Assembly (NCBI GenBank): GCA_010909165.1
Contig: VJWM01000238.1
Location: forward strand, 199,775-263,774
Origin: Anthoceros angustus
Lineage: Eukaryota > Plantae > Anthocerotophyta
Length of the DNA stretch: 64,000 nucleotides
Direction of reading: 5' to 3'
The notes under the pieces are model-generated. The model had not been told where the DNA came from and did no database searches. It saw only the letters and a list, made by a program, of their open reading frames with translations. Position 1 is the stretch's first letter; the number at the start of each line of letters is the position of its first letter. Position numbers and translations under genes: made by a program. Below, one piece after another: positions 9,573-39,584 of the stretch.

Positions 9573-10362
9573 CTACCATCCTCCAAACTTGCTCTTGCCG
9601 TGACAAACGATGATGCATTTCCCAGCAACCTCACGCCTCCATGACTTGGAGCACCCACATGCCCTCTCCCCCTCCCCACACATATGGGGTGTCCACATCG
9701 CCGACCAGACGCCCACACGCACACCTTCTCATCGCCTTCCACCGGCCCGAGGGCTGCACTCCAAATTGGAGACGGCAGGACCTCTGTACCATCTGGTTTT
9801 TCTGGCGGTGGAGTTGGTCGCCAGCCTGACTCAACCCGGCGGTGCACCGCCACAACCTGCGTGTGCCAGTACGCCTTATGCCTTCGTGTGGACCGTAGGC
9901 TCTGCCCCGTAGAAAGGTAATGGGCTAGTTTTTTTGTTTTCTAGGTGTGGAGTGAGAAATAAGACAGGGAATAAGGTCAGGATGGGTAATAAGTTGGCTC
10001 CGGACCTCACTCCGGAGAAGGCAAATGACTCCGGACCTCACTCCGGAGTAGGTAGGGGACTTCGAACCGCACTCCAGAGGGGCCGAGTGTCTGCGGACTG
10101 CACTCCGGGGTAGATCGCGGTGAGTCCGGGCTGCACTCCGGAGTAAGTCGCGGTAAGTACGCCAAGGAAAGTAACTTTGGAACGGGGAGCGTATTTTGGC
10201 AAGAGGGGCCACGGACGGCCACGAGAGGTGGACGGCATGCAAATGTACTGTACGTAGGGTTGCCACGACGTTATAGGCGTGTATTCATGCTCCAGTACAT
10301 GCGCCAACAGATCTGAGTAGCTACGGCGTCACAAGCGGCAACACAGAAGACTAGAGTAAGCC

Positions 10363-13300
10363 ATGCAGGCCTCTGATAGTTACGGGCAGCGGCGCGCTGC
10401 TTCGTTACACCCGATGCTTTGGCCCCGAACGAAGGTCATTCTTCCGAGCGACGCGGCTCTTGCGCTCATACACCCTACTCTCAGCGTTGTCTTTTCAAGC
10501 CGCCCGACACTTACGAGCTCATCTTTGCAAACGTCATGCGCGAAGAGAGGAAGGAGAATTGGTCGAAGGCCAACCCCAACAAGCACTCAAGAGGAGCAAA
10601 GAATGGGGCCCAAGAAGGCGGAGGTTTGGGAACCGCGCAGGAATGGAACATCGCCACCAAGCGCTACCCGGATTTTGACCTTGGTCAAGTGAGGCGGAGG
10701 AGCTGGTGGAAGACGGCACTGGATATCTTCCTGTGTCTCTGGACTTCGAAGGCCGCCTAGTCCAGAATACGCCAAGATGTTGGCGGTGGCCAACAAGGAG
10801 GTCCGCCCAAGAACTCCGAGGGAGGACCCGGGAGGTGGACTGGAGGTCCCGAGGGCGCGGCGACCGCCCGGGAGGAAGTGGGAGGCGAGTCCCGAGCCCC
10901 TTAAGGTGAAGGGAAAGTGAAGCGCAAGGGGCGGCTCTCTTGAGGTTGGTGACGCAGCGGTCCTCCAACGGATGGTCGTGACCACGAACAAAGTGCGAGC
11001 GTGGCGAAAAATCATCGTCCACTGGAACATGCTCACCAAGGTGGACCACCTTGGTGACAAATTGTTGGTATTCCTCCACGCCCTACACAGAGGAAAACGG
11101 GCCAACTGGGGAGGAATCATCTTCGCCAGGATCAACCAGGAGGCCAGGAAGCTGAGGAGCGAGAAGCCGCCCCCGTCGGCGTTATCGCCGTTCATCATCC
11201 ATGTGTGGGGGCACCTGAACCTCTTGAAGGAGGAAGAGGAAGAGCGGGCGCTCCGGAGGACCCGGGAGGAGGAGCAGGAGGAGGAGAGGAGAGGAGGAGG
11301 AGAAGGCCGCCCTTCCAGGGCCAAGCGAGTCCGGGAGGAGGAAGATTGGGAGGGGATTCCGGACTCCATACGTTTGGAACGGACCCCCTCGCCACCCTAG
11401 GAAGTGTGGGAAGAAATTCCACTTCCCTTCTTTTAGTCCCTCCACCGGAGCACCCTGCGCCAGAGGAGGTTGCCACAGGGAGGGAGTTGGCGGTCACGAC
11501 GCCAGCAAACCAGCAGCCCACAACCGCCGCCGACGAGTGGCAGCTGAGGAGGCCAAGGAGAGCAGAGAGGGATGCGGCCCAAGGGGCGGAGGACATTGGC
11601 AAAGAACTCCCACCCCGAGCCCACCTGCCCCAACCGGGAGAGGCAAGACTCGGCCACAGACCCTCACCACCTCCGAGCCCTAAGAGAAGGCGGAGAAAGA
11701 GCTAGTGGCCAATAGGGCCGAGGAGGTGGAAGCTTTGGACTGTAACACTGTGACCCGAGTCCCGGATGAGTCCCTAGTCCGGCCACCTGCATCGATTGTG
11801 GCGGTCCCAACGGACCAAGCGTACCCGAGGCCGCCATGACGGCGAATTTCCAGCCGCTGGGTAGAAGAAACCCGAGGGTACTGCACCTGCTATGGACGGG
11901 TGCCTGGGGTCTCTAATGTGCCAGAGAGACTGTGGAGGTAGAGGCCACTGGAGACGATGGTGGAGCTCCAGGGTCAGGCGGAGGCAGCCCAAGTGGCCAA
12001 GAGGAAGGCGGAGACCCTCGCAAGAATCGAGGAGGAGAAGCGCGGGCGAGTCGGGCGAGTCCATGTGATGACCCGGATCCAAGTGTGAGCAGTGAAGTAA
12101 GCGCAGGCTGCAGGGCGAGGTCCGCCCAACATGACCCGGCCAGGATCCTTCAGCTGTGTGAACAGCTGAAGTAAGCGCAGGAGGCATGAGCGAAGGTGGA
12201 AGACCTTTGCAGACGGAGGGAAACGGCCCAAGAGGAGGCGGAAAGGGCTAAGGACCTGGCCGAGGCGGCTCGGCAGGAGCAACACCAAGCCTGGGAAGCT
12301 CAGGTGAAGGGGCGCGGAAGCCGAGGCAGCAGGCGAGGACCACCTCATGGGACCGAACCGGTGGAGAAGGCCAGCATAACCCCAGCCAACACGAAAGCAG
12401 CGGCGGTGAGCGAGGACCAGCATGAGGAAAGAGGAGGCGTGCAGGAGATGGAAGATCTCCGGGCACAGTTGAAAGGGGCGGAGGAGCGACGTCAGGAGCT
12501 GGAGGACCGCAAGGAGACCTTGGAGCTACAGCTCCACGTAACGGTGGAGCGGAATGGAGATCTCCAAGGTATAATCGTGGATCACGAGCGGGAGATTGAG
12601 CGGCTCCAGATCTGTTGGAGGGTGGAGGAGGTCGACCGGACCCCGAGGTCCGGACTCGGGAGGAGAGGAGGAGGAGGAGGAAGCCACAGGCGTCTTGCCG
12701 GAGCGCCTGGAGAGGAACATGGGGGCCCTCCATGCAAGAATGGATAGTGGGGAGAGGGCTCTGAGAGGAGGAAGCCAGCCGGGTCCGCCATGGCAGAAGG
12801 GAACGCTGCCCGGCCGTAAGTGGCCGAACTACAACGGAGGCGGGAGGAGGAGCACGCAGAGCAGCAGCAGAGGCTGCAGGAAGTGTCGGAGGCAGCCTTG
12901 GCGGCCTCGAGAGACTTCGCCAGACTCCAGTTGGCGGGCCTGGCAGCGGAGACGACCCAGCAAGCCAACCAGCACGCGTAGCTATCGGAGCACCTTTGGA
13001 GGAGGGAGTACCGAGTGGCCCCGGGCCCATGTGGAGGATGCAATTCAACAAGTCGATTCAGACTTTGCCTACTACCACGCGGAGCTCCTCAAGGCCCTGG
13101 AGGTCCTGAACCACCCCCGGCAAATTGACGGACCCCCGGACGGATCAGAGGGAGGGGGGAGAGATGAAGGCCCTGGAGATAGTACGGCCACCGGGACTCT
13201 AGGAGCGCTGTTCGGAGACGAGAGCAGCAGCGGGGAGGGGGAGCATCAGGAGGAGCAGGATACGGCGGACATCACTGGGCATGAGGTAAGCCCGCCACAC

Positions 13301-13808
13301 CCCACCAGGAAAGGAAGGGAGGAGGGCCCCGAGGGGGTCAGAGAAGGGGAAGTCCAGGAAGACCCAAGTCAGGCTGGGGGTCCGGTGGCCGAGGACGGAC
13401 CCCCGGGAAGTTCTCGGGGCGGGGGAGTTCAAGAACCCGCGAGTCCGGACCCTGAGGTCCGGACTCCGGAGACGAGACCGGACCCTGAGTTCCGGACTCC
13501 AGAGTTGAGACCGGACCCCAAGGTTCGGACTCCGGAGACAAGGCCGGACCCCGAGGTTCGGACTCAGGAGGAGAGGGGGGATCACCACCCGCCTGCTTAG
13601 GCGGAGCAACCTCCTAGTGGACCCGCAGAGCAGGGACCCACCAGTGAGTCAAGAGGGGAAGGGGAGGAAGACTTGGTGGTTACCGCGGTTGTCAGGCCAT
13701 CGCCGGTAGCTCAACCAGATAGGGTCTGGAAGGAAGGGCCCCGCACCGGATCATCCGATTGCGCGCCGAACCGCCGTGACTGTGGATTGGGCCACCGCCG
13801 AGGCGTAA
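10363..13808 (+). CDS. LTR-encoded accessory ORF, copy A (frameshifted, ~1,100 codons; globular N-terminus, coiled coil, acidic disordered tail)
   Basis: Joined ORF pieces 10363-10692, 10972-11400, 12196-12747, 12596-13600: MGPKKAEVWEP..KRYPDF..NKEVR..HWNMLTKVDHLGDKLLVFLHAL..NWGGIIFARINQE..SPFIIHVWGHLNLL..KETLELQL..DFAYYHAELLKALEVL..EEDLVV..RIIRL; the same motifs occur in all four LTR copies. Confidence 0.75.
13440..13566 (+). repeat. 30-bp coding tandem repeat (PDPEVRTPETR) x4 in the LTR ORF
   Basis: ccggaccc(t/c)gaggt(c/t)cggactccggagac units. Confidence 0.85.
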
Positions 13809-13924
13809 TCATGGGCACTCCACCGCCGACGACATAGATAGGCGGGCTAAGGGAAATAGTGGGCGGCAGTTAGCACACCGAAATGGACATCACTCAAAAT
13901 AGGAGTGTATGACGCCGCCTTGGG

Positions 13925-13940
13925 CGTAGTATAAGAGGGC
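13925..13940 (+). promoter_or_regulatory. Putative LTR TATA box (copies at ~20350, ~34777, ~37932)
   Basis: GTAGTATAAGAGGG is conserved in all four LTRs, ~120-550 bp context downstream of the ORF end and ~25 bp upstream of a conserved CATCTTTCT. Confidence 0.65.
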
Positions 13941-16220
13941 AGGGGCTGCTCTAGTAAAGCATCTTTCTTTTGGGGTGATTACCGCGTTTTCTTGTAGACC
14001 CTTGTGCGTCCCTTGCTAACGCGAGTCCTGAGTTACTGAGCAGGCACGACAGCCTCGGAGAGATTGATCAAGGTCTTGGTGGCGGACCCTAACGTGTGGT
14101 GGTGTGCCGGGCGACGACCGAGACCCTTGCTCTTCCGAGCAGGGCCGACGCTGACCCGGAATGCGTGAGACCAGTGGAACTCCGGGAGGGCGTGTAGAGC
14201 CCGGACGGAGAGGCCTAGTGGAACAGCGACGGAGGTCCGGACCACGCACCCACCCACTCTTTTCCAACGAATGATGAGCGTAGTGAGAGTGGTAAGGAAG
14301 GTGGACTAAAACGAGACGATCGGTAGAGTGACGCCAATGACTCAAACGCTTAATACGGCCTCAGACGGGCGGACACTTAAGAGTAGCTAATAGTAAAACC
14401 GCGAGCGCGCGCGCGATCTTGGGTATAAATGGTCACAACGACGAGGCGAGAATCGGTTTGAGACGTGCAAAACGGAACCAATCATTCCCAATTGGGAACG
14501 GACCCCTTACTACAACGACACGGACCGCGGCGCCTGGTCGACTGTCAACAAAGTCGCACTACATCATGATACTCATGGCGGGTCCACCATTGCCAATGAT
14601 ACCAGCTGCTCCATGTGTTGGGTGTCTGTAATGGGCTGAGACAGTTCGGGCATGTAGTAAGGCTCTGTTTCAGGTGTGCCATCCATGGCGGTATGTGGAC
14701 TACGGACTTCCCTTGGGGGGTTAGGAAATAGGTAGGGTTTTGTTTTTTTTGTAGGAGCGAAGGATAAAATGAGGCGAAAAAGGGGGAAATAAGCACGGAT
14801 AGCACTCCGGACGGCACTCCGGAGTATACTCCGGACTCCGGAGTGAGGAACGTACCCGGACCCACTATGGTGCGCGTGGTAACGGATAAGTCCGACCCAC
14901 CTGTGACCGCGTGATAAGTACGCCGTGAAAGTAACTTAGAAGTTGGAGCCGTGAGACGGACCAGCGACGCCACGGACGAATTCGAATGGAGGACGGCATG
15001 CACCGACCAGAATTGCCGGGTCATAGCAGTGTGTATTCACGCGCGGACGCGGCAGAAGGCCGCAGTACGCGGAGGCGTAAGGCCGAGTAAGTGGAGGCGT
15101 AAGGTCGGAATAAGCCATGCACTCTCGCGCTACTGTGGAAGAGGCGCCCCGCCTGTTACTCCCGGCGTGGCCGGCAAGGGTTTCACACCGAGACAACTCG
15201 CAATCTTCGCGCTCCAGCCCCGCTTCTAGCGGTATCTCGCTGGACGCCAGACGCTCGCCGCTCACCGCTGAGGTTGGAGCAACAACGGGCAAGAAGGCGC
15301 AACGTGCCGGGCCTCTCCAAGCTGCCACAAGAACCAAGGAGGAGAAGGCGATGGCACCCAAAAGCCTGCGGAAGTTTGGGAGCCATGGAACCTCGTGGAG
15401 CGCAACATTGTGACTCGGCGCTATCCGGACTTTGGGCCCTGGCGCAGGGAAGGCATTGGTGCGTGGCACTTGGATGCGCTCCAGATGGTCCGGACGCTCG
15501 AGGTCACTCACAGTCGGGAGTTCGCCGGAGGCTGGGCGGTCAATAAGGAGGTGCGGTCCAAGAACCTCGGGAGGACCCTGCGATGGACCTTGGAGGTCCC
15601 GAGGCTGCCTACAACCGCCCAAAGGAGGAAGAAGGGGGAGTGGTACCAGCCCCTGGCGAGGAAGATAGGGCCGCCAGGCCGCGTCGAGGGCCTCGGACGC
15701 TGACCACCAACGGTTGGGCGATATCCCACCGCTGGACAATGGTAAGGCGGTAGCCGGATCATTGTCCATTGAAGCTCACCAAGGTGGACTCACCTTGGTG
15801 ATAACTGTTTTTTCGCATGCGCTGCCCGCTGGGGAAGAGGGCGGTGGGAAGGATCATCTTCACGGCTTTAGGTCGGAGGCTCAAGCTCAGACCGAGAAGC
15901 CCTCGCCCGTCCATGGATGGGGCACTTCAGCCTCAAGGAAGGAGAGCTTGAGCGAGCCCGGGAAGGACCTGAGGCCCTGGAGTGGAGGCAAGGGCGCCTG
16001 AGGGAGGAGGCCGATCGTCAAGGCCGACAGGAGGAGGACGGAGGAGATTCGGATTCCACTCTGAACGGACCCCCTCACCACAGGAAGTATGGGAAGAAAT
16101 TCCGCTTCCTCCTCGTGCCCCAACCGAGTGACGATCCGCTGAGCGGCTCAGCCTGAGCCAGCCACCGGCCACCCGAGGCCTTGGACCGGGGAGGGCAAGA
16201 GACGCAAGACCACGATTTCA

Positions 16221-19200
16221 TTGGACTACACGGACTTGGGGTTAGAAATTAGGTAGGATTTTGTTTTTGTGTGGAGCCGAAAGGATGAGGCTAAAAGGAG
16301 GAAATAAGCGGGTTAGCACTCCGGGGAGTATACTCCGACTCGGAGTGAGGAACGACTTAGACCTACGATGGCGGGCGCATGGGTAAGACCGGACCCACTC
16401 GGGACCGGCGGGATGCGCGAGGTAACTTAGAAGTTGGAGGCGTAAGGGGGCCGGGCGGCCACGTGGGCGACCGAGTGGAGGAGCGGGCATGCACGGTGGT
16501 CGGGACCGTAACCTTGCGAGGCCGTTATAGCGGTATTCACGCCCGCGGGCTGCCGGCGTAAGGCCCGTGCAGCGGCGTAAGGCGCGAGTAAGCCATGCGG
16601 ACCTCGGCGATTCACGGGGGAGGCGCCCTCAGCCGGTTACTCCGGCGTGGTCGGAAGAAGGTCATTTTTTCTGACCTCGAGACAATTCGCGATCTCTTGC
16701 GCTCCATGATCCGGCTCTCTGGCGGTATCTCGTGGGACACTCGGGCGTCTTGGCGGCTCACCGTTGGTCGGGCGAGCGGCGAAGAGGCTCAACGTGCGGT
16801 CTGACAAGCGGCGGCGGCAGCAAGGAGAAGAAGGCGATGGCACCCAAAAGCCAGGAAGTTTGGGAGCCATGGAACCTTGTGGGCGCAACATTGTGACCCG
16901 CGCTATCCGGACTTTGGGCTCAGCTCCGAGGCGGAGAATTGGTGCGGTGGCATTTGGATGTGTTCCAAATGGTCGGACATTTGAGTCACTCTGGTCCGGG
17001 AGTTTGCGGAAGATCTTGGCGGCGGTCAACAAGGAGGTGCGGTCCAAGAACCTCCGGGAGGACCCAAGGCGATGGACCTTGGAGGTCTGAGGCGGCCTAC
17101 AAGGAGGAAGAGGGGAGTGGTGCGGGCCCCTCAAGGCGAAGGGAAGATAGGTCCGCCAGCCCGATGCTAAGGCACGCAGCGGACCCAGTGGTTGGGCGAT
17201 ATCCGACTGTTGGACGGTCGAGTCGAGGCGGTGGCGGATCATTCATCTGGAACCTACTCACCAAGGTGGATCACCTTGGTGATAATCTATTAGTGTTCAC
17301 CACGCGTTGCGGGGGAAGAAGGCGGGTGGGAAGGATTATCTTCGCCGGTTTAGCCGAGAGCTCATGCTCGGGAGCCGCCATGGGGCATCCCCGATCCATG
17401 TATGGGGCATTTGAACTCCTCGGGAAGGAGAGCTTGGCGCTCGGAAGGGGCTGAGGCCTCCCGGAAGTGGAGGCGGGCGGCCGGAGGAGGAGGCGGTCGA
17501 CAAAACCAAGCGGACTCGGGAGGAGGGGAGGATTCGGACTCCATCGCTGAGCGGACCCCTCACCACCCAGTATGGGAAGCAATTCCCTCCCTCCTTCAGT
17601 GCCCCAGCAGGCGAGGCGGCCCGGCCCCAGCCGGCCATCACTCGGTGAGCCCGCGGACGGAGAGGCCGAAGCGCAAGACCCACACGGCTGGCAGCGGTGC
17701 AGTCGGTGCAGTACCTCTTCCCCGCGGAGTGGCGGAGGAAGGCATGGAGGCGAGAAGGGGCCGAGGCGGAGGACAGCGGCCGCATCGGGAGTCACGCCCG
17801 GCGGAAGGGGCAAAAGGCGTGCTCCGGACTCCATCACCTCAAGCCCGGAGAAAAGGGCGGAGAAGGAGCTCGCGGCCCAAAGGGGAGGAGCTCGGAGCTC
17901 GGCCTCGGGACCTAAGGGTCTGATTGGGTCGGAGAACCCGGTCGGACTTGCTCGGGGCAGTATGGAGGTCCTTGGCGGACCGTGAGATGCCGCTCCCTCG
18001 GACTTTGTGGGAGCCTCACCGTGCCGTGGAGGAAACACGGCGGGTCACAGCTACCGTCATGGACGGTATGCTCTCACAGTGTCTTGGGATGGCCGAGAAG
18101 GCCAGGTGGAAGCCACCGGGCGCATGGTGCTCCTCCGGAGGCGGTTGGAGGAGCCCAGGCGAGAAGGAAGGCCGAAGCTCGGCGGGATTGAGGAAGGGCC
18201 GGGAGGCGAGAGGAGGTCTGGTCCATCCGCAGGACGGACCAAATTCTTTGGAGGAACAGTGAGCGGGCCAAGGAGGAAGCCCGAGTCACTCGTGACCTAA
18301 GGGTCTGGTCCGAGAACCCACCGGACTTGCTCCGGATCTGCGTATGGAGGTCCTTGACGGACCGTGAGATGCCGCCCCCAGGACTTTGTGGGAGCCTCAC
18401 TCAGCCGCCGTGGAAGAAACACGGCGTCCTGCTACCGCCATGGACTATGCCTGGGGTCTGTGGGATGGCCGAGAAGGCCCAGGAGGTGGAAGCCACCCGA
18501 GGCGCATGGTGCTCCTCCAGAGCAGCTTGGAGGGAGCCTGTGAGGCGAGAAGGAAGGCCAAGCTCGGGATTGAGGAAGGAAACGCCGGGAGGCGGAGAGG
18601 GAGGTTTGGTCCATCCGCAAGGACGGACTAAATTCCTTCAGGAGGAACCAAGGCCAAGGAGGCCCAAGGCGGAGGACCTCTGCAGGCGGGCGTAGCCGCG
18701 AGGCCGGCGCAAGCGAGCAGGCGGGATCTCGGAGGCGGCACCGGACGAGCCAAGGCTGGAGAGGCTCGGTGAAGGTGGCCAGGAGGCGGAGGCCACGGCG
18801 AGGCCGATCGCGATCACTATCGGCGTGATCGGGCCGGTGGAGGAGGCGGAGAGCAGCCAATCGAAGGCCGAGCAAGTGGCCGAGCAAGCAGTCGGCCGTG
18901 AGGAGAGGCCGGCACCGGGAGGTTGGGGACCTCGAGTGCAGTGCGGAGAGGTAGAAGGCGGAGGCGGGAGGCTGGAGGACAACAAGGACACCTTGGAGTT
19001 GCAACTCCAAGATGCATCGAGCGGAGGGGTTCTCAGCGAGAGAATCCAAGACTTGACGAGAGGTGGCCTCCAGCTCCGCTTGAGACGGAGGAGAAGCGGC
19101 GGTGCAAGGAGTTCGGCGTCGCCCGGTTGCGGCAGGATGTGGCGGAAGCCGAGTCGGACGGGGATGCCCGCTGGAGAAGGAAGTGGAGGACCTCGGGAAA

Positions 19201-20891
19201 GAATAGAAGAAGGGAGGAAGGCCTGGAGGAAAAGTCATGCTCGTCCGGTTGCGGGAAGCGAAGGAGCTCGGCTCCATGGCCCATAATGGCGGAGTGAAAG
19301 CAGGAGGAGGAGAGGGCGGCGAAGGTTGCAAGAAGTGAGGCAGCCTTGGCGGCCTCAAGAGTCCGCCCGCCTCGGTGAGCTTGGCCACGGAGCAGGCCCG
19401 GTGGGCGATCTGCTCGATTCTGGAGCACCTGGAGGAGAGTGGTGCTCGGGCTCATGTGGAGGAGGCGATTCAAAGTCGATTGACCTACTACCGAGCTCCT
19501 CAAGGCTCTGGAGGTCTGCGCCACCCTAGGCGGGAGGTGGACTTCGGAAGGGAGGAGGCGAGGAGGACGGACCGGGGCGGCACTGCAGGAGTCCTAGGAG
19601 GCTGACGGCAGCAGCAGCGTGGGAAGGCAGCGGAGGAGGAGGAAGGGGCGCCACCGAGGTAAGCCTCGGCACCCTCGCATGGAAGGACGAGGGAGGATCT
19701 TGAAGGAAGAGCAAGCATTCGGGAACCAAGGGAGGGCTCGGTGGATGAACCCGTGGCTAGCCCGGAGGCATGCCAGGGCACGAGGTCGGACTTTGTCCGG
19801 ACTCAGAAAGGCCGGACCAGTCCGGCCCCGAAGGAGTGGACTTAGGGATCCGGACTCTAGTGACAGTCCGGGCCACGAGGTCCGGACCCAGGAAGGTTGG
19901 GTCGAGGCCGGACCCAGGAGGCGTCCGGTCCCAGGCCGGACTCGGCCGGGCGGAGGCCGGACCGGAGGAAGGCCGGACCTAGAGGTCCGGACTCGAGTCG
20001 AGACAGTCCCGAGGTCCAAACTCGGGAGTGGGGAGAGCCACGATCACCAACCCCGGATCCACCTTGGAGGGCCCACTGCGAGGCCCGCCGAGAGAAGAGG
20101 GAGGACGAGGAGGACTTGGTGGTGGCCGTTGTCGAGCCGCCGGTGGCCGACTGAGACCCTCGGGAAGAGGAAGGGTCCCTCGCGGATCATCCGATTAGTG
20201 CGCATGACGGCTCGGCTTTGGCGCCGGTGCCAAGAAGGAAGGCCATCGGCCCACCACCGTGGCGATAGGTGGAATAGGCGGGGGTAGGCGGTGGTTAGGG
20301 TACCACTGGCCTCATTTCGAATAGAGGTGTAATAAAGGCGTGGGCGTAGTATAAGAGGGCTAAGGCCACAGATAAATCATCTTTCTCTTGGTGTTGATGC
20401 GCGTTCTTGCGGACCTTTGTGTGTCTTCTTGCTAGTGAGTCACGTGTGGCGAGCGGCGACTCGGGAGATTGATCGGTCTGGTGGCGGACCTAACGTGTTG
20501 TGGTGTGTGCGGGGAAGGGTGGTGACCGTGCTCGTCCCAGCCGCGGCCACCGGAGACGTGAGCCGGAGGAACTCGGGAGGCGTCTGAGCGGACGGAGGCC
20601 GTGAGCAGCGGAGGAGGTCCGGTGTCCAGCGTCTTTCTAAGGCGAGGAGTGTAGCGTGAGGGGAGAGAGGAAAGGACGGATGTGTGAGTGACGACGAACG
20701 AACGGACGCGAACGGTCCTAAACGCTTGGCCATACAGGGCTGTCGGTGAACGTTGAGTAGTTAGGAGTATGTGTGTTGAGGCGAGCGCTAAGTGAGGAAT
20801 CACACGCAGCGGAGCCTATCATTCCTTGGGCGGACTTCTTCCTACAACGACAGGATTGTGGCCGGTGGCCATCGGTGAAAGTCGCGCCACA
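16221..20891 (+). repeat. 5' LTR (copy C) containing the accessory ORF (~16595-20287)
   Basis: T(G)TGGACTAC...GTCGCGCCACA, directly followed by TTT and the PBS; direct repeat of 28554-35352. Confidence 0.88.
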
Positions 20892-20894
20892 TTT

Positions 20895-20907
20895 TGGCGC
20901 CGTTGGG
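20895..20907 (+). other. Primer-binding site, tRNA-Asp type (duplicate at ~21609)
   Basis: TGGCGCCGTTGGG 3 nt after the LTR end; matches the first 11 nt of the Athila-type PBS TGGCGCCGTTGCCGGGG. Confidence 0.8.
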
Positions 20908-27800: not shown

Positions 27801-28521
27801 CAACACTCCGGGTCATGATGGAAAGGCGCTTAACGGATGAAGAGCCAAGCTGGAGCGGTTGCTAGGGTTTTGTCTGACGGAGGACCGGGAAGAGGCGCAG
27901 CGAATGCAAGGCATAATCAACGCAATGACGGACTATTTCGCATCACACATCGTGACGGCCCCTACAATCCAAGGCCAGCGGTGTGAGAAGACCAATGGAC
28001 TTATCCGCATCCTCAATAAGTGACGGTTAACTATGCGCACGATACAAAGGCCGCCATCGGCGCTATGGGCGTTCGAGCGGCAGAAGGTAACCACGCGAAC
28101 TCCGTATCTCGACCTATGGGCACTCACCCGTTATGCCGGTCGAGTTTGAGGTGCCAACACTCCGGGTCATGATGGAAAGGCGCTTAACGGATGAAGAGAG
28201 CCAACTGGAGCGGTTGCTAGGGTTTTGTCTGACACGGAGGACCGGGAAGAGGCGCAACAGCGAATGCAACTGGTACAGAATCAACGCAAGCTGTGGCATG
28301 ATAGGCGCCTTAGGAATCAGGAGTATGTGAAGGAGGGAGATCTGGCCCTCCTTTACGACAGCCGACATATGCACTTCCCAGGTAAACTCCACCTACGATG
28401 GATGGGGCCTTACCAAGTCGTACGAGTATACCCCAATGGGTCCGTTCAGCTTCGGCAGTTGGATGGTGAACTGCTGCCCACTCGGGTGAACGGGTGGCGG
28501 GTGAAAAAGTACCACGCTTAG
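24860..28521 (+). CDS. pol: Pol: aspartic protease, reverse transcriptase, RNase H, integrase (frameshifted)
   Basis: LDT(G)SGVNLI ~24920; WVAPIVVVKK, FPMPFVDDI, KTTFTTEWG, FMEVFLD ~25865-26165; FHVCVDVS and LLQEFTFEV ~26530-26810; WWPTM, PFEKWGID, ENIITRYGCP, SDRGTHFLN, and PGKLHLRWMGPYQVVRVYPNGSVQL...RVNGWRVKKYHA* ending 28521. Confidence 0.93.
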
Positions 28522-28541: not shown

Positions 28542-28553
28542 GAGAAGGGAGTA
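28542..28553 (+). other. Polypurine tract
   Basis: GAGAAGGGAGTA immediately before TGTGGAC of the 3' LTR, ~20 bp after the integrase stop. Confidence 0.75.
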
Positions 28554-31500
28554 TGTGGACTACGGACTTCCAGGGGTTAGAAATTAGGTAGGTTTTGTTT
28601 TTGTGGGAGGCGAAGGATAAAATGAGGCGAAAAGGAGGAAATAAGCCGGTTAGCACTCGGGCACTCGGAGTATACTCCGACTCGGAGTGAGGCGTGCCTA
28701 GACCTACGATGGCGGGCGGCAGGGTAAGTCCGGACCCACTCCAGGACCAGGCGGGATAAATCGCGGAAGTAACTTAGAAGTTGGGCGTAAGGGCCGGAGG
28801 CGGCGCCACGTGGGCGACCACAGTGGAGGGCAGGCATGCGTGGTCGGGACCGTAACCTTGCAGGCCGTTATAGCGGTATTCACGCCGCTGGGCAGCGGAG
28901 TAAGGCCAGTAAGCGCGAGTAAGCCATGCGAGACCTCGGCGATTCTGGACGAGGAAGAGGCGCCCTCAGCCGGTTACTCCGGCGTGGTCGCGGAAGAAGG
29001 TCATTTCGCGGCCTCGAGACAATTCTCGCGATCTCTTGCGCTCCGCAATCCGGCTCTCTGGCGGTATCTCGTGGGACACTCGGACGTCTTCGGGCGCGGC
29101 TCACCGTTGAGGTCGGAGAAGCGAGCAGCGAGGCGTGCGGTCTTACAAGCGGCGGCAACCGGAGAAGGCGATGGCACCCAAAAGCCGCGGAAGTTTGGGA
29201 GCCATGGAACCTTGTGGAGCGCAACATTGTGACCGCGCTATCCGGACTTTGGGCTCGCTCCGAGGCGGGGTGGTGCGGGAGTGGCATTTGGATGTGTTCC
29301 AAATGGTCCGGACATTTGGCACTCTGGTCGGGAGTTTGCGGAAGATCTTGGCGGTCAACAAGGAGGTGCGGTCCAAGAACCTCCGGAGGACCCAAGGCGA
29401 TGGACCTTGGAGGTCTGAGGCGGCCTACCGCCCAAGGAGGGAGTGGTGCGGGCCCCTCAAGGCGAAGGGAAGATAGGTCCACGGCGATGCTAAGGCTGGG
29501 GCAGCGGACCCAGCGGTTGGTGATATCCAGACTGTTGACGGTGGTCGAGTAGGCGGTGGCCGGATCATCGTCCTGGAACCTACTCACCAAGGTGGATCAC
29601 CTTGGTGATAATCTATTAGTGTTCACCTGCAGCGTTGCGGGGAAGAAGGCGGGGAAGGATTATCTTCGCCCGGTTTAGCGAGGCTCATAGCTCGGGGCGA
29701 AGCCCCGCCATCAGGGCATCCCCATACACGATCCATGTATGGGGCATTTGAACTCCTCGGGAAGGAGAGCTTGAGCGGCTCGGAAAGGGCTGGGAGGAGT
29801 GGGCGGGCAAGGCGGAGGAGGAGGCGGTCGAAAAAAAGCGGACTCGGGAGGAGGATGGCGGGAGGATTCCGGACTCCATACGTGGAGCGGACCCCTCACC
29901 ACCCAGTATGGGAAGCAATTCCTCCCTCCTGGTGCCCCAGCAGGCAGCAGTGGCCCGGCCCCCGGCCCGCCATCACTCGGTGAGCCCCGGACCGGAGGCG
30001 AAGAGGCCAAGACCACGGCTGCGGCACCCAGTCGGTGCCGGTACCTCTTCCCTGCGGGTGGCAAGCGGAGGAAGCGATGGGAGGCGAGAAGGAAGGCCGG
30101 GAGGCGGAGGACAGCGGCCGCATCAGGCGTCTCGCCCGGCGGAAGGGGCAAAAGGCGTGCTCCGGACTCCATCACCTCCGAGCCCAGGAGAAAAGGCGGA
30201 GAAGGAGCTCGCGCCAAAAGGGCCAAGGAGGAAGAGGGGGGTGGTGCGGGCCCCTCAAGGCGAAGGGAAGATAGGTCCAGCCACAGCGATGCTAAGGCAC
30301 AGGGCGCAGCGGACCTGTGTTGGTGATATCCACATGGACGAGTCGTGGCGGATCGCCATCACTGGAACCTACTCACCAAGGTGGATCACCTTGGTGATAA
30401 TCTATTAGTGTTCCCGCAGCGCGGGGAAGAGGGTGGGAAGGATTATCTTCGCCCGGTTTAGCGAGGCTCAGCTCGGGGCGAAGCCCCGCCATCGGTCCCC
30501 ATACGATCCATGTATGGGGCATTTCAACTCCTCGGGAAGGAGAGCTTGAGCGCTCGGAAGGGCCCGAGGCCCTCCGGGAGTGGAGCGGGCAAGGCCGGGA
30601 GGAGGCAGTCGACAAAAACCAAACGGACTCGGGAGGAGGATGGCGGAGGATTCGGACTCCATACGTGGAGCGGACCCCTCACCACCCAGTATGGGAAGCA
30701 ATTCCTCCTCCTTCGGTACTGCCAGGCAGCCGAGCGGCGCGGCCCCAGCGCCACGGCCATCACTCCGGTGAGCCCGCCGGACCGGAGAGCCGAAGCGCAA
30801 GACCACGGCTACGCACCCCAGTCGGTGCAGTACCTCTTCCCACAGTGGCAAGAAGCGGAGGAAGCGATGGGAGGCGAAGGGGCCGCCCGGGAGGCGAGGA
30901 GCACAGCAGCAGCCGGGCAGTCATCGCCGGCGGAAGGGGCAAAAGGCGTGCTCCGGACTCCATCACCTCCGCCGAGCCCGAGGAAAAAGGCGGAGAAGGA
31001 GCTCATGCCAAAAGGGCCAAGGAGGGGAAGCTCGGACTCGGCCTCGGGACCTAAGGGTCTGATTGGGTCGAGAACCAGTCCGGACTTGCTCGGGGCTGCG
31101 GTATGGAGGTCCTTGACGGACCGAGATCCGGCTCCGACGGACTTTGTGGGAGCCTCACGGCGGCCGTGGAGGAAACACGGCGGGTCAGCTACCGTCATGG
31201 ACGGTATGCTCAGAGTCTGTCTTGGGATGGCAGAAGGCCGGAGGTGGAAGCCACCGGGCGCATGGTGCTCCTCCGAGGCAGTTGGAGGAGCCAGGCGAGA
31301 AGGAAGGCCGGCTCTCGGGATTGAGGAAGGAAGCCGGGAGGCGGAGAGGAGGTTTGGTCCATCGCAGGGGCCGGACCAAATTCCTTTGGAGGAGCAGTGG
31401 CAGCCAAGGAGGCCCAAGCAGGCGGAGGACCTCTGAGGCGGAGGCGGAGGCGAGGAGGCGAGAAGGAAGGCCGGGAGGCGGAGGCGGAGGCGGAGGACCT

Positions 31501-34500
31501 CGGGAAGGAGGCGGCCGGCGGACGAGCCAAGGCTGGAGGCTCGGTGAAGGTGGCCAGGAGGCGGAGGCCACGGCGAGGCCGATCGCGATCACTATCGGCG
31601 TGATCGGGCCGGTGGAGGCGGCCAGGAGCGGCCAATCGAAGGCCGAGCAAGTGGCGCGGAGCAAAGCAGTCGAGCCGTGAGGAGGCGGAGGCCCGGCACG
31701 GGATTGGGGACCTCGAGTGCAGTGCGAGGTAGAAGGCGGAGGCGGGGCTGGAGGACAACAAGGACACCTTGGGTTGCAACTCCAAGATGCATCGCGCGGG
31801 GGTTCTCAACGAGAGAATCCAAGACTTCGAGCGAGAGGTGGAGCCTCCAGCTCCGCTTGAAGACGGAGGAGAAGCGGGTGCAAGGAGTTCGGCGTCGCCG
31901 GTTCGGCGGGATGTGGCGGAAGCTGAGCCTGACGGGATACCGCCCGCCTGGAGAAGGAAGTGGAGGACCTCCGGAAAGAATAGAAGAAGGGAGGAAGCCT
32001 TTGGAGGAAAAGTCTGCTGCTCGTCCGGTTGCGAAGCGAAGGAGCTCGGCTCCATGGCCCGCAAAATGGCGGAGGCGGAGGACAACAAGGACACCTTTGG
32101 AGGAGAGGAGGAGAGCGGCGGCGAAGGTTGCAAGAGGTGAGGCAGCCTTGGCGGCCTCAAGAGTCCGCCTACGGTGGTGAGCTTGGCCACGGAGGCAGGC
32201 GCGGGCGGGCGATCTGCTCGATTCTGGAGCACCTTTGGAGGAGAATGCAGGTGCTCGGGCTCATGTGGAGGAGGCGATTCAGCAAGTCGATTCCGACCGC
32301 CTACTACCGAGCTCCTCAAGGCTCTGGAGGTCTGCGCCACCCTAGGCGGGAGGTGGACTTCGGAAGGAGGAGGAGGCGAGAAGGAAGTGGAGCGGACCGG
32401 GGGCGGCACCAGGAGTCCTAGGAGGGTTGACAGCGGCAGCAGCGGCGAAGGAGGCGGCGGAGGAGGCCGGGAGGAGGAAGGGCCACACAGGAGGTAAGCC
32501 CTCGGCACCCTCGCATGGAAGGACGAGGGAGGATCTTGAAGGGAAAGGGGCAAAGGCGTGCTCCTGACTCCATCACCTCCGCCGAGCCCTGGAGAAAAGG
32601 CGGAGAAGGAGCTCGCGCCAAAAGGGCCAAGGAGGGGAAGCTCCGAGCCAAGACTCGTGACCTAAGGGTCCCGATTGTCCGAGAACCCACCGGACTTACC
32701 CGATCTGGTATGGAGGTCCTGACGTGGATGCCGGCCCCCACGGACTTTGTGGGAGCCTCATCACAGCGGAGGAAACACCGCCACCGCCATGGACGGTATG
32801 CCTGGGTCTCGGATGGCCGAGAAGGCCTGGAGGTGGAAGCCACCCGAGGCGCATGGTGCTCCTCCGAGCTTGGAGGGAGCCCAGAGGCGAGAAGGAAGGC
32901 AAGCTCGGATTGATTGAGGAAGGCCGGGAGGCGGAGAGGGAGGTTTGGTCCATCCGCGATCGACCAAATTCCTTCACCGAGGAACAAGTGCCAAGGAGGC
33001 CCAAGCGGAGGACCTCTGCAGAGGGCGAGCGCAACAGAAGCGAGGACGCCCGGGCGCAAGAACGGGCGGGATCTCGCGAGGCAGCCCGACCGACCGAGCC
33101 AAGCCGAGAGGCTCGTGAAGGTGGCCAAGGAGGCGGAGGCCACGGCGAAGGCCGATCGCGATCACGGCGTGATCGAACCGTGGAGGAGGCGGCCGAGAGA
33201 GCCGGCCAATCAAGGCCGAGCAAGTGGTCAGCAAGCACGTTGAGCTGAGGAGGCGCTGAGGCCAAGACCCGGGAGATTGGGGACCTCGGTGCACCGCAGG
33301 AGGTAGAAGGCGGGTGAGCCGGAGGACAACAAGGACACCTTGGAGTTGCAACCCAAGATGACGGAGCGCAGGGGTTCTCAACGAGAGAATCCAAGACTTC
33401 GAGCGAGAGGTGAACGCCCAGCCCGCTTGAAGACGGAGGAGAACAAAGGGCGGTGCAAGGAGTTCGACGCCGCAAGTTGCGAGATGTGGCGGAAGCCGAG
33501 TGACGGATACCGCCCGCCTGGAGAAGGAAGTGGAGGACCTCCGGGAAAGAATAGAAGAAGGGAGGAAGGCACTGGAGGAAAAGGTACAGCTCGTCCGGTT
33601 GCAGGAAGCAGAAGGAGAGCTCAGCTCCATGGCCCGCAAAATGGCGGAGCTGAAGCAACAACGGGAGGAGGAGAACGCCGAGCAGCAGCGAAGGTTGCAA
33701 GAGGTAACGGAGGCAGCCTTGACGGCCTCAAGGGAGTCCGCCCGCCCATACCGTGAGCTTGGCCACGAGACAGCCAACGGGCGATCCGCCCGCCACGAGC
33801 ACCTGGAGGAGGGAGTACCGGGTGCTCCGGGCTCATGTGGAGGAGGCGATTCAGCAAGTCGATTCCGACCGCCTACTACCACGCAGCTCCTCAAGGCTGA
33901 GGTCCCGCGCCACCCTAGGCGGGAGGGTGGACTTCGGAAGGACGAGGGAGGAGGCGAGGAGGACGGACCCGGGACAAGACAACCTGGAGTCCTAGGAGCG
34001 CTGCTTGACGACGGCAGCAGCAGCGAAGGAGAGGGAGGAACCGGGAGGAGGAAGGGGCGCCACACCGAGGTAAGCCCCCGACCTCGCATGGAAGGACGAG
34101 GGAGGATCTTGAAGGGAAAGGGGCAACCGGGCATTCGGGAACCAAGGGAGGGCTCGATGGATGAACCCGTGGCTAGCCCGTGAGGAGGCATGCCGAGCGA
34201 GGTCGGACTTTGTCCGGACTCAGAAAGGACCAGGGTCGGCCCCAGGTCTGGACTTAGGGATCCAGACTCTGGTAGTCCGGACCACGAGGTCCGGACCCTG
34301 TGGAAGGGTTGGGTCGAGGCCGGACCCGGAGGCCGGACCTAGAGGTCCGGACTGAAGGCGGGCCGGAGGCCGGACCCGGAGGAAGGCCGGACCTAGAGGT
34401 CCGGACTCGAGTCGAGGCAGTCTGAGGTCCAAACTCGGGAGTGGGGAGAGCCGTCCACCCCCAGATCCAACCCTTGAGGGCCCAGCGAGGGCCGCCGAGA

Positions 34501-35352
34501 GAGAAGAGGGAGGACGAGGAGGACTTGGTGGTACCGCGTTGTCGAGCCGCCGCCGGTGGCGCAGCAGACCCTCGGGAAGAGGAAGGGTCCCCGCGGATCA
34601 TCCGATTGGGTGCTTGCGCCGGCGGGGCTCGGCTTTGGGCCGCCGGTGCCAAGAAGGAATGAGGGGCCAGCCCACCGTGGCGGCGATAGGTGGAATAAGC
34701 GGTAGTAGGCGGTGGTTAGGGGTACCTGGTGGCCCTCGGCTCGAATAGAGGTGTAATAAAGGCGCCGACCTTGTAGTATAAGAGGGCTAAGGCCTACAGA
34801 TAAATCATCTTTCTCTTGGTGTTGATCGCGTTCTTGCGAGACCTTGTGTGTCTTCTTGCTAACGTGAGTCCCGAGTCACCGAGCACGGCGGCTCGGGAGA
34901 TTGATCGGGGTCACTGGTAGCGGACCTAGCGTGTTGTGGTGTGTGGGGAAGGTGGCGGTGACCCGTGCTCGTCGGCCCGACCCGGCTGCCGAGCAATTTG
35001 GGCGTGTGGCCGGAGGAACTCGGGAGGCGTGGAGCCGGACGGAGGCCGGACCTAGAGGTCCGGACCCGGAGGAGGACGTTGTGTAACCAGCGTCTTTTCT
35101 AAGGCGGTGTAAGCGTGAGGGGAGAGAGAAGGGATGTGGTGGCGGATGTGAGCGATACGGTGCAGGTCCTAAGCGTTTAGCCATCAGGCTGTCTGAAACG
35201 TTGTGAGTAGTTAGGAGTATGTGTGTTGAGATCGAGCCGGCGCTAAGTGCGGTAGGAATCACACAGGCAGCAGTAAGGGCTATCATTCCTTTGGGAACGG
35301 ACTTCTTCCCTACAACGACACGGATTGTGCCGGGCCATGTTGATCGGCCACA
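28554..35352 (+). repeat. 3' LTR (copy D) containing the accessory ORF (~28926-34662), inflated by internal tandem duplications
   Basis: TGTGGACTACGGACTTCC...GGCCACA; same ORF motifs, TATA box and U5 as the 5' LTR. Confidence 0.88.
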
Positions 35353-38300
35353 AGCTGGCACCTCTCGCGCAGTGCACCCCCTCACGGAGTGGCAAGCGGA
35401 GGAAGCGATGGGAGGCGGAGAGGGCCCTTGAGGAGGCGAGGAGGACACCCAGTAGCGGCCCACTTGGGCCGGTCATCGACCGGCGGAAGGGGCAAAAGGG
35501 CTTGCTCCAGACTCCTCACCTCAGGCCCAGGAGAAAAGAGGGCGGAGAAGGAGCTCGCGGCCAAAGAGGCCAGGAGGTGGCTCGGGAGCTCGGCCTCGGG
35601 GACCTAAGGGTCTGATTAGGTCCGGACCACGAGGTCGGACTTACTCGGACAGTATGGAGGTCCTTGGCGGACCGTGAAATCTCCGCTCACCGGACTTTGT
35701 GGGAGCCTCACAGTGGCCGTGGAAGAAACACGGGTCACAGCTACCGTCATGGACGGTATGCTTTGGGGTCTCTGGATGGCCGAGAAGACCCGGAGGTAGA
35801 AGCCACCGGGCGCATGGTACTCCTCCGTGAGCAGCTGGAGGGGCCCAGAGGCAGAAGGAAGGCCAAGCTCGGCCGATTGAGGAAGGGAACGCCGGAGGCC
35901 GAGAGGGAGGTCCGTCCATCCGCAAGGACCGGACTAAATTCCTTCAGTGGAGGCGGTGAGCGAGCTAAGGAGGCCCAGGTGAGGACCTCTGTGACGGAGG
36001 CGGCGAGGCGGAGGAGGCCGGGCGCAAGCGGCAGGCGGAGGAGGCGGAGGCGGCCCAGTGGACGAGCCAATGGAGGCTCGGTGAAGGTGGCCAGGAGGCG
36101 GAAGCCACGGCGGCCGATCGCGATCACTATCTCGGCGTGGTCGGGTGGAGGAGGCGGTGAGAGCCACGGCCAATCGAAGGCCGGCGGTGGCGTGAGCAGG
36201 CGGAGGAGGCGGAGGAGGCCGGCCAGGAAATCGGGGACCTCGAGGGTGCAGGGAGGTAGAAGGAGGCGGAGCCACGGCGGCCGATCGCGATCACTATCGG
36301 CGTGATCGGAACCCTGGAGGAGGCCGAGAGCCACGGCCAATCAAGGCCGAGCAGTGCAGAGCAAGCACGACGAGCCGCAAACACCGGAGGCCGAGAAGAC
36401 CCGGAAATCGGGGACCCTGTGCGCACTGGCAGGAGGTAGAAGGGAGGCGGAGGAGTTGGAGGACAAGAAGGACACCTTGGAGTTACAACTCCAAGGCAGC
36501 GTCGGAGCGACAAGGGTTCTCAATGAGAGAATCCAGGACTTGACGGGAGATGGCGCCTCCGGCACGAAGATGGAGGCGGGGAGGTGGCGGAGCAGCCGGA
36601 CCCCGGGGCCAGAAGTTCGCGACAAGGAGATGGAGGATCTCGGACTCTCCGGGAGGTGGAGGCGGCGGAGATGGAGGACCGCAAGGAGACTTTGGGCTGA
36701 CAAACTATCATTGAGAGGAATGGTAGTCTGCGGGACATGGTCGGAGCGGAAAAAATGCTCTCGGCTCTGTTGGCGGACAGTCGATGCGATGGAGCAGGGG
36801 AGGCGGGGCGTCGCCGAGATGGAGAAGGGGCACAGGCGAAGCCGCGATCCCAGATGTTGCGGCCGTGGGCGGAGATGGCGGAGTTAACGGCGGAATGGAC
36901 AAAGCGGGCGGGCAGACAAGAACTGGTCGGTGAGGAAGTCGGAAGGGGAGCTGGGCGGGCAAGGTGGCGTGAGCAGGCGGAGGAGTTGGGCGGGTGGAGC
37001 AGCGGTTGCGGGAGGTGGCCGGCCTGGCGACCTCGCGAGCGGCCGGCTCCGGCTATCAAACTGGCGGGGAGGTGGAGCAACAAGCGCGCAGGCTCGGCTC
37101 CGGAGCACCTATGGCGAAGGGAGTATCGGGTGCTCGGGCGCGTGGAAGAGCAATCCGGCAAGTGGATTCGGACTTTGCCTATTACCACGGCTCCGAGCTC
37201 GGTAGAGGCCTCTGCGCCAGCTGCAATAAAATACGGACCCTGGAAGGCTCGGAGGGGAAGAAGGGGGCAGGGCGGCCAGGGGACCCTAGGGGCCCTGTTT
37301 GGGGGACGCAGCGGAGAGAAGAGCCCCAAGAGGAGGCGGGGCGGACCCCAGTAAGTTCACCACCACTCGGAGAAGGGGGTGGCCAGGCTGAAAGGGGGTC
37401 GAAGGAGGAGCCAACTGAACCAAGACAAGGGTCGGGGGTGAGGAGGAGGACCTAGCGATCAGGTCCACGGGAGTCGGGAGCTTGGGGACCCGGACCCGTA
37501 AGTCGGACCACGAGGTCCCAGGCAGGACCCGGCCGGCGGACTCGAAATAAGCGGACCCACAGGTTGGACTCGGAGTCGAGACCGGACCTCGAGGTCGGGA
37601 CTCGTGATGGAGGAGCCCCGACTTCTAGGAGGCGGATGGCGGTGGCCCCAGGAGGACCCATGGGGAGGCGGAGGAGGATGGCGTCGTGGTAGCGGTCGTC
37701 GCCGCCCATTGTGGCGGGATTCGGGAGAGGAGGTCCGCCTCGCGGATCATCCGATTAGGGTCTTGCCCATGGAGCGGGACGGAGATTGGACCACCAATCC
37801 CAAGGCGGAACTCGGGACCTTCCAGCCACAGAAGGAGATAGGGGAGGAATAGGATGGTAGGCGGCCGATTAGGGCATCTTGGTGGACCATTTCGAGAATA
37901 GGGGTGTAATAAAGGCGCGACACAGGCGTAGTATAAGAGGGTCACGCCTCAATAAATCATCTTTCTCTTGGTGTTGATGCCGCGTTCTTGCAGGACCTTG
38001 TGTGTCTTCTTGCTAACGTGAGTCTGAGTCCGGCGAGCCACGGCGCTCGGAGGATTGATCGGGGTCTGGTAGCCGGACCTAACGTGTTGTGGTGTGTGCG
38101 GGGAAGGTGGCCCGGGGGACCGTGCTCGTCGCAGCCCGGCCGAGCGGGCCGAGCGTGTGGCCGGAGGGACTCGGGAGGCGTCTGAGCCGGACGGAGGCAG
38201 TGGAGCAGCGGAGGAGGTCGGGCTGTGTAACCAGCGTCTTTCCTTAAGGCGGATAAGTGTGGTGTGAGTGGAGAGGAGCGGACGAGAGGTGTGAGGCAGG

Positions 38301-39584
38301 CGTGAGCAAGCAGGTGTGACAGGTCCTTAAGCGTTTGGCCATACCGGCTGTGCGGTGTTGTCGAGTAGTTAGATGTGAACTAAAGTGTGTGCGTTGGGTG
38401 AGCAGACGCAAAGTAAGGCACGAATAGCACGCAAGCGGAACTGTCATTCCCTTAGGAGCGAACTCCTTCCTACAGCGACACGGGATTATGTGGCCGGTAC
38501 GGCCATCGGTAAAAATCGCGCCACACAGTACGATTATTGTTACAAGAAATGTATGTGTAAGCGGTGTGCGCATATGCAAAGCAAGTGTGCGGCAAATAGA
38601 ATGCAAGTCAGGTCGAGTGACAAACACGCTTTAGCGGCAGGAGACATGGGTCAACTTTGGGAAGGCAATGCTTTCCAACTTTTCAATTCAACAACCCGCT
38701 ATACACACCCTTTGTGGAAGTGCTACAAAACTCCACAGACCGGATCCTACCCACTGATTCGGCACTTGTATGCACTTGTTGTCGTGCGTCATGGCATGTT
38801 TCATGTGCCCCCTGTGAAATAAACACCTAGATAAATCGGCATCACTTGCACAGCGTCTTACGGCAAACGGCTAGTGCAGGCTTGCAATGCATCGGCGACG
38901 CCAGTTTGGAATGCTTCGTCTTCAAATGGAGGTTGCAGCCTTCTCCGCCACATTGTCTCCGTGTGTTGGGTGATGTTGGGAGCTCCATCTTCTCGGTCTG
39001 TGGAAACCTCTTCTCGATCTGTGCAAACATCTTCGCACATATGAGGAGAACTCGGGACGTTGTTGTGACGAGAGCCTTCTGATGGATGCAAAGGAAAGAA
39101 TTGATCGCCGACTATATCTGGTGTTGGCAAATGCCAGTCTATCAATGCCTCGTACCACGGGCATTGGCGTGTGTAATCGACCATCTCCTCAAGCAAGCGG
39201 TGATGCCATCAATGTTAGCTCTTCATCGACAATATAACAAGGTTAAATACATTGCTGGTTGGCATCGACACAGGCGGTGGGTGTCGTGGTATGTGAGAGG
39301 AGGGTGGCGTTCTTGGCGGCCCAGTGCAGGCATTTGAAGTCGCTATTGTGAACATCCACATTTTGTGTGTAGCGGATAGATGCCGCCCATGAGAATCTGA
39401 CGTGGAGAAGGCGGTCGTTGTTGGCGTCCCATCCTTCTCATCAGCGAGCACGATACCGGCATGTCGGAGAAAGTGGCGGTGCCCTCAATGCGACTTTCTA
39501 TGCGACCGGCCCGATTAACATTCTTGAGGGGTGGGGTATTTTGAGTTTGAACCATCGGTTGCAATGCAGCGTATCTGAATCCGG

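Follow-up and report, generated by a model that had tools for sequence, protein, structure and literature searches.

The window examined here, a 64,000-nucleotide stretch of contig VJWM01000238.1 from Anthoceros angustus (assembly GCA_010909165.1, positions 199,775 to 263,774 of the forward strand), contains four copies of a very large long terminal repeat (LTR) that belong to a single family of Ty3/gypsy retrotransposons. On balance, the family is a non-chromovirus lineage whose LTR, 4.3–4.7 kb in length, contains a sense coding region, likely a single accessory gene for a protein of ~1,100 amino acids (aa) and likely within the U3 region, with a product predicted to be a nuclear, chromatin-acting regulator made up of a PMD/DUF1985-like domain, a coiled coil and an acidic tail. 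An earlier interpretation of this DNA, made from the letters alone and referred to here as the sequence-only reading, had proposed that an accessory coding region lies in the LTR, is duplicated at each insertion and is left behind in solo LTRs. This is supported by the limits of the LTRs, by the nesting of the copies and by a coding signal inside the repeats. The layout is real and unusual within the limits set by the sequence quality, in that accessory open reading frames (ORFs) are a known theme and no plant case of their location in the LTR was found in the literature searched. All results on the four copies, named A to D, are drawn from this one window.

The four copies form one family, as had been claimed, although copy A begins at 9887, 2 bp ahead of the start given previously (9889). 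TGTGGAC opens copies A, B and D, and the start of C is garbled as read. Copies A, B and C all start at the same TGTGG with unrelated flanks, and D starts there after a polypurine tract (PPT). The length of the LTR is set by these independent starts and by the PPT-preceded copy D, and a short LTR with an internal ORF is therefore excluded for these copies. A BLAST search with the LTR across the window revealed no short, ORF-less copy elsewhere. It is very likely that the overall architecture of the LTR is real.

The nested full element measures ~14 kb in total and proceeds in the order C, primer binding site (PBS), gag-pol, PPT and D. The PPT does lie directly before D, as the sequence-only reading described, 20 bp separating the integrase stop from the PPT and 32 bp separating the same stop from the LTR start; the PBS likewise follows C directly, at a distance of 3 nt. 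This element interrupts copy B, which begins 130 bp past copy A. The first 1.5 kb of B corresponds in BLAST to positions 1–1459 of C, 35380–38525 corresponds to positions 1499–4670, and the two halves meet at a homologous base. Because the halves rejoin in this way and the 5-bp outer flanks agree at four of five positions, B is a solo LTR split by the full element. Of the 5-bp target site duplications (TSDs) reported around both solo copies, that of B is thus upheld whereas that of A is not, the flanks of A being identical at only one of five positions.

Copy A differs from B, C and D by ~22%, in line with its description as the diverged copy. Copy B is less close to C and D than had been stated, with 13% mismatch in its 5' part, and in its 3' part with 6–11% up to ~36270, 25–32% over ~36270–37700 (the coiled-coil and C-terminal part) and 8–17% beyond. 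With A ~22% apart from the others, and B 13% apart from C/D at its 5' end and up to 32% in its middle, three LTR lineages are therefore present that are not derivable from one locus. A third subfamily is the apparent source of the coiled-coil and C-terminal part of B, a pattern expected from template switching.

The window is part of an unpolished long-read assembly. C and D, which are the LTRs of one element and hence not independent copies, differ by 4–9% mismatch with 7–9 gap openings per 100 aligned bases. Four tandem duplicates, some of them internal to the element and others spanning the LTR/PBS junction or contained in C, show a similar level of noise, with 1.5–7% mismatch and 5.5–8 gaps per 100 aligned bases. 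Since C and D carry different ones, the duplicates are likely stitching artefacts of the unpolished contig. They account for ~390 bp within C and ~2.3 kb within D, so that A and C match in length partly by chance. The same caution applies to other findings from this assembly.

The coding region occupies 3.3 kb within end repeats of 4.5 kb. The conserved start that the sequence-only reading had noted was recovered, with TAAGCCATGC present four times in the window, once per copy, 366–470 bp into the LTR. In two of the four copies, A and B, the first and second ATG are in frame with no stop between them, and plus-strand stop triplets in this interval reach only 0.44 of expectation (pooled); such a stop-poor, in-frame stretch favours the start chosen by that reading. 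TAAGCCATGC may have a cis-regulatory role, either in addition to that of a start codon or in its place. The peptide motifs listed earlier were found in all copies that cover them, and in copy B the frame that encodes the last of the conserved motifs ends at a stop codon (37839–37841).

Stop triplets are depleted on the plus strand over the ORF, where they amount to 0.69–0.82 of a dinucleotide expectation in all five segments, compared with 0.76 in gag-pol, 1.02–1.22 in the eight segments of the LTR before and after the ORF and 0.92–1.17 on the minus strand. In the cleaner parts of copy A a single frame is almost free of stops, the three frames containing 1, 5 and 9 stops over 13022–13745 and 0, 6 and 3 over 12190–12600. 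Local comparisons employed 14 local alignment windows across the copies. The synonymous test used gap-free blocks in which at least two C/D reads agree, and compared the differences of A with 400–1,000 permutations to sites of the same base, the best frame being chosen alike. For the N-terminal domain, A differs from the agreeing C/D reads by 19 synonymous to 15 non-synonymous changes, against 12.7 to 20.3 after permutation (p 0.002; 7 blocks, 184 nt), and the excess persists across three block settings (p 0.002–0.005). In the best block, 55 nt at 11022, the frame encoding WNMLTKVDHLGDKLLVFL has five codons with synonymous and three with non-synonymous differences. An excess is also seen in the coiled-coil part (p 0.017–0.035), and none in the LTR past the ORF (p 0.21–0.52). 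These patterns argue with high confidence that the N-terminal domain and the coiled coil were coding and under purifying selection. There is a reasonably good probability that one continuous frame extends from 10363 or 10603 to ~13840.

TAGTATAAGAG is present four times in the window, one per copy, 542–634 bp ahead of the end of the LTR. A TATA-like box is found ~90 bp past the presumed stop, followed ~25 bp downstream by a CT-rich stretch; few blocks of the LTR are as well conserved as these two, which all four copies share. The TATA-like box is taken as the genomic promoter, which therefore places the ORF in U3, and a location in U3 rather than R is considered likely. As to the claim that the ORF lies wholly in U3, its position downstream of the PPT is shown, and the genomic start site is presumed from the TATA-like box. 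AATAAA occurs ~15–20 bp before this box in C, D and B (20331, 34755 and 37908) and not in A, and could mark the end of an LTR-ORF transcript. Conserved GCATGC/CCATGC words at ~10235 and 10361–10368, in the 5' part of the LTR, have equivalents in B, C and D, and are similar to the RY element, a binding site of B3 factors. Right after the ORF a purine run is followed by TGTA, a candidate for a relic PPT and an old LTR start, which is given little weight because the strand is 60% purine.

The order of composition within the predicted protein is an N-terminal domain of ~220–300 aa, an acidic, proline-containing linker, ~400 aa of E/K/R/Q/A/L with almost no proline and an acidic tail. No hydrophobic 19-residue window above 1.6 was observed in any plus-strand frame of any copy (maximum 1.58 in A and no more than 1.16 in B, C and D), although frameshifts may hide or break such a segment; with that proviso, the result fits the earlier view that an envelope role is unlikely. 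The suggested homology to Athila ORF2 or Transposase_32 found no backing, as single-frame pieces gave no Pfam match to PF03078, PF10536, PF04195 or Transposase_32. In the ESM Atlas, one piece returned hypothetical proteins at 0.93–0.94, from Streptophyta where taxa are recorded, and, at lower scores, one set for DUF1985 (20% of members) at 0.91 and one for PMD (36% of members) at 0.88. This lead fits the known make-up of Tat extra ORFs, which combine PMD with a coiled coil (PMC4408406). A PMD-like fold of the N-terminal domain is possible, at a little under even chances. Two single-sequence structure models, of a quality too low to be informative (mean pLDDT 50–52), had no PDB match at E 0.001. 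A search for related loci passed 2 of 511 metagenome stretches, with matches of 32–34 aa, and both were dismissed as chance, since tblastx against the window was no better than 1e-4 for one (L001) and gave nothing for the other (L002); no related loci were found in viral contigs or prokaryote genomes.

The hexamer TCCGGA is over-represented in the LTRs, with 14 observed against 1.8 expected in A, 8 against 2.3 in C, 15 against 3.0 in D and 6 against 0.4 in the 5' part of B, and is not enriched in gag-pol (2 against 2.5) or in the flanks. Its arrays are located at both the non-coding 5' end and the C-terminal repeat. The targets of VANC proteins also occur as tandem repeats (PMC5735166), and PMD proteins encoded by transposable elements have been proposed to act in counter-silencing (PMC8616336). 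By analogy, the LTR-encoded protein may, tentatively, be a nuclear trans-acting chromatin regulator of its own element. A bolder version, in which the LTR would be a self-contained cassette with its own promoter, a ~1,100-aa PMD-like gene, a polyadenylation signal and arrays of its own putative TCCGGA binding site, is a long shot.

The internal region, net of duplicates, is ~5.3 kb in length and collinear with a 1,788-aa Riccia polyprotein. It is filled by gag-pol, with no space for aRH, a chromodomain or an extra ORF. PR was assigned by position and by eye from its motif, and the RT of the window is frameshifted as read. Among 202 candidates, 18 proteins matched the integrase C-terminus, and all the named ones come from Marchantia or Riccia with 53–64% identity. 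Judged from the window, the host is likely a bryophyte or another land plant of an early-diverging lineage. The TG...CA LTRs, the PBS, the PPT and the order PR-RT-RH-INT are those of Ty3/gypsy elements, and the integrase ends as in the liverwort polyproteins P0004 and P0007, 32 bp ahead of the LTR and without the chromodomain of chromoviruses. The aRH of Tat elements was not found, as RH and INT are separated by ~124 codons, compared with 114 aa in P0007 (for which no aRH family is listed), and nothing follows INT. Nor does the 20-bp gap between pol and PPT hold the 3' extra ORF of Athila, and PF03078, which occurs in part of those ORFs, gave no match. For Athila, a PBS for tRNA-Asp/Asn and a 5-bp TSD are described (PMC6317226). 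The PBS of the element is putatively of the tRNA-Asp type, with an 11-nt match, and no tRNA gene was found in the window; a 5-bp TSD is seen at four of five positions around B and not around A. The element departs from Phygy, which has a 4-bp NCGN TSD, a tRNA-Trp PBS and a length of 7.7–10 kb, in the TSD of B and its ~14 kb, and putatively in the primer type. On these sequence features the element is assigned to the non-chromovirus Ty3/gypsy group, at that level and with no clade placed.

A number of results weigh against an intact, single accessory gene with a PMD-like product. No copy contains a single open ORF as read, contrary to the sequence-only reading, in which each copy held the same long one: the longest stop-free plus-strand stretch in any LTR is 341 codons, and copy A requires at least 8 frame switches and has in-frame TAG codons at 11398, 12979 and 13598, the first of which is absent from the four B/C/D reads covering that site. 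Solo copy A looks decayed or miscalled, and the retention described for it refers to the DNA. The synonymous test of A against C/D, with its excess in the N-terminal domain and coiled coil, shows none in the middle part (p 0.24–0.78) or the C-terminal part (p 0.81–0.87). B compared with C/D alone shows no significant excess (whole ORF, p 0.06–0.23), and all these p values are uncorrected. The minus strand of the whole ORF also scores (p 0.005–0.15 by setting), yet more weakly and with more stops, which is what shared third positions would give. Stop depletion is slight at 10900–11260 (0.92), and ten tiles outside the element have plus-strand ratios of 0.73–1.00. A frame-free measure of mismatch periodicity from pairwise alignments did not separate ORF (0.36) from non-ORF (0.33–0.36). 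At the protein level, none of 19 single-frame pieces reached a curated Pfam cut-off, although such short pieces may run out of frame, and no homologs of such pieces were found at E 0.001 among 1,902 candidates, among 1.84 billion representatives or at E 10 among 75 candidates. A second piece had no usable match in the ESM Atlas, where 4–10 of 100 shuffled proteins reach 0.9, and PMD has been described as angiosperm-only (PMC8616336). TCCGGA was chosen after inspecting the sequence, and the 3' part of B shows no enrichment (2 against 1.4 expected).

Several of these points would also suit an LTR in which, instead of one ~1,100-aa protein, at least two shorter ORFs are encoded, or a spliced gene, or a single coding domain alongside GA-rich non-coding repeats. 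The synonymous excess is confined to two of four parts, stop depletion is missing at 13140–13480 (1.17), and TCCGGA is common to the C-terminal repeats and the non-coding 5' array. However, stops are depleted in nine of ten pooled windows over 10590–13800, below 0.8 in six of them, in A a nearly open frame extends for 720 nt in the C-terminal part, and the repeat period of 33 is a multiple of three, so that such a division is rather doubtful, with perhaps a minority chance. The coding region might also belong to R or U5, if the genomic RNA started near the 5' end of the LTR and the TATA-like box had another role. A TTATAG-like word ~90 bp ahead of the first ATG in three of four copies (a variant in B) and the AATAAA that precedes the TATA box closely in three of four copies (B, C and D) would be consistent with this, but the strong conservation of the box and its CT-rich stretch argues otherwise, and an R of 3.5 kb would be needed, far outside the range known for LTR elements. 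This location is accordingly held to be improbable.

With regard to function, the protein could be an integration-targeting or particle scaffold factor, directing fresh insertions to older members of its family, rather than a transcription or silencing regulator. The window contains three family insertions in 29 kb, one within a solo LTR of its own family and one 130 bp from another, the protein has a long coiled-coil-like region and the integrase lacks a chromodomain, all of which agree with targeting. Set against them, this is a single locus and nesting is common in plant genomes (PMC6911290), and such a role is unlikely. Very improbable is an assembly artefact, in which the giant LTR would have been stitched from noisy reads of one ordinary element. 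Stitched tandem duplicates do exist in the contig, but A, B and C/D differ by 13–30%, compared with a read noise of 4–9%, each copy has its own flanks, and B has a TSD and rejoins at the level of the base. A non-chromovirus with an LTR-borne accessory gene is the preferred reading, with moderate confidence.

The sag gene of MMTV-like viruses, about one third of the length of the Anthoceros LTR coding region, is similar in being placed mostly in U3 and kept in solo LTRs, and differs in encoding an animal retrovirus superantigen, with no homology seen or expected. For sag, 490 of 527 contigs are without other viral genes, and purifying selection is inherited from the active element (PMC4667437). 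In plants, additional ORFs are described within the internal region (PMC7264820, PMC11963269). The 3' sense ORF of Athila and the PMD and TRP28 ORFs of Ogre/Retand (PMC7264820, PMC6317226, PMC4408406, PMC11963269) resemble the Anthoceros case in having an extra gene downstream of pol and no chromodomain, together with a globular domain, a coiled coil and tandem arrays nearby, but they lie either ahead of gag or in the stretch from pol to the PPT, whereas the Anthoceros ORF lies beyond the PPT, in both LTRs and in solo LTRs. LTRs of up to ~5 kb are known among non-chromoviruses (PMC6317226). The Ty3/gypsy polyproteins of Marchantia and Riccia (P0003–P0009) and the Phygy and Selgy elements share an internal region filled by gag-pol, and the liverwort polyproteins are 55–64% identical in the integrase C-terminus; Phygy and Selgy, at 4.4–10 kb in total, with a 4-bp TSD, Trp/Ala primers and no extra ORF (eORF) listed (PMC6317226), differ from the ~14-kb Anthoceros element with its 5-bp TSD. 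Athila, Phygy, Selgy and Tat domains have been reported in a liverwort, and the available portion of that account mentions no LTR ORFs (PMC12885004). The VANDAL21 element, whose VANC21 protein is anti-silencing (PMC5735166), also combines an accessory gene with arrays of a short motif, and serves as a working analogy only, being a DNA transposon with an unrelated protein.

No case of a plant LTR-borne ORF was found in the literature searched, subscription papers being largely outside its scope. The eORFs of Tekay elements have been scored at both ends (5'F 33%, 3'F 18%, 5'R 12%, 3'R 8%; Neumann et al., PMC6317226) and could include LTR-borne ORFs.

Table 1. Positions of the LTR copies, the internal region and the LTR-borne coding region in the window.
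Feature	Position	Strand	Remarks
LTR copy A, solo	9887..14563	+	lacks a PPT upstream and a PBS downstream; ~22% mismatch to B, C, D; no recognisable TSD
Array of 31–33 bp repeats with TCCGGA, 5' non-coding part of LTR A	9998..10158	+	shorter equivalents in B, C, D
LTR-borne coding region, copy A	10363..13840	+	~1,080 codons from second ATG (10603), ~1,160 from first; at least 8 frame switches, three in-frame stops
N-terminal globular-looking domain, conserved	10603..11240	+	strongest synonymous excess; weak DUF1985/PMD-like lead
E/K/R/Q/A/L-rich, proline-poor region	11940..13160	+	probable coiled coil, from composition
33-bp (11-codon) repeat, four times, with TCCGGA	13440..13570	+	acidic, low-complexity C-terminal part
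TATA-like box and CT-rich stretch	13927..13970	+	in all four copies; presumed genomic promoter and U3/R border
Solo LTR B, 5' part	14694..~16220	+	breaks off within coding region at nested insertion
LTR C, 5' LTR of nested full element	~16222..20891	+	~390-bp stitching duplicate inside
Primer binding site	20895..20905	+	second read of PBS at 21609
gag-pol (zinc-knuckle Gag, PR, RT, RH, INT)	21640..28521	+	collinear with Riccia polyproteins; three stitching duplicates
Polypurine tract	28542..28551	+	2 nt before LTR D
LTR D, 3' LTR of nested element	28554..35352	+	lengthened ~2.3 kb by stitching duplicates
Solo LTR B, 3' part	35353..38525	+	continues from the base at which the 5' part breaks off; divergence is mosaic
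Tandem duplicates, diverged at the level of read noise	20667–22096, 22252–24687, 27568–28289, 17904–18648, 29434–34126		one spans the LTR/PBS junction

The remainder of the window holds a PPR gene on the minus strand (55920–58450; Pfam PPR and PPR_2), which fits a land-plant host and contains repeats of ~335 bp that resemble PLS-class triplets. Remains of a CACTA-type transposase are found at ~39000–43200 (Transposase_21, E 3e-31 at 40631–41155). Two matches were below cut-off, one to zf-RVT at 2336–2827 on the minus strand, likely a LINE fragment, and a weak one to ATP-cone at 59316–59924 on the plus strand (E 4e-4). Tandem arrays occur at 63038–63873 (91 bp, nine times), 52975–53229 (64 bp, four times) and 53862–54146 (37 bp, 7.7 times).

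The LTR-borne gene most likely originated from a 3' additional ORF behind pol, in an Athila/Tat-type layout. A shift of plus-strand priming to a PPT upstream of this ORF would have made it part of U3, reverse transcription would then have copied it into both LTRs, and recombination between the LTRs would leave one copy in each solo LTR. The latter two steps follow from established LTR biology. That the ORF outlasts the rest of the element in solo LTRs is to be expected of a gene in this location, as reported for MMTV sag (PMC4667437), and is no evidence that such survival is selected for. Expression of the ORF would rely on a promoter within the first ~450 bp of the LTR or on a spliced RNA. 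More tentatively, the protein could act in trans on the LTRs of its own family, activating them or countering their silencing, and the TCCGGA arrays would be candidates for the sites it binds.

This family makes the function of the additional ORFs of plant retrotransposons testable. The solo copies carry the gene without gag-pol, which makes its action separable from transposition. Alignment across long distances is also feasible for an LTR that is coding, and sag has been used in this way. LTRs are generally treated as non-coding in annotation, and this is a blind spot, such that the non-chromoviruses of early land plants recorded as short and with gag-pol only may hide accessory genes in their LTRs. 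If the cassette proposal were true, each young solo LTR would continue to supply its entire family with a sequence-specific protein that activates or counters silencing, and recombination between LTRs, the usual route by which the host deletes such elements, would leave a counter-defence gene behind.

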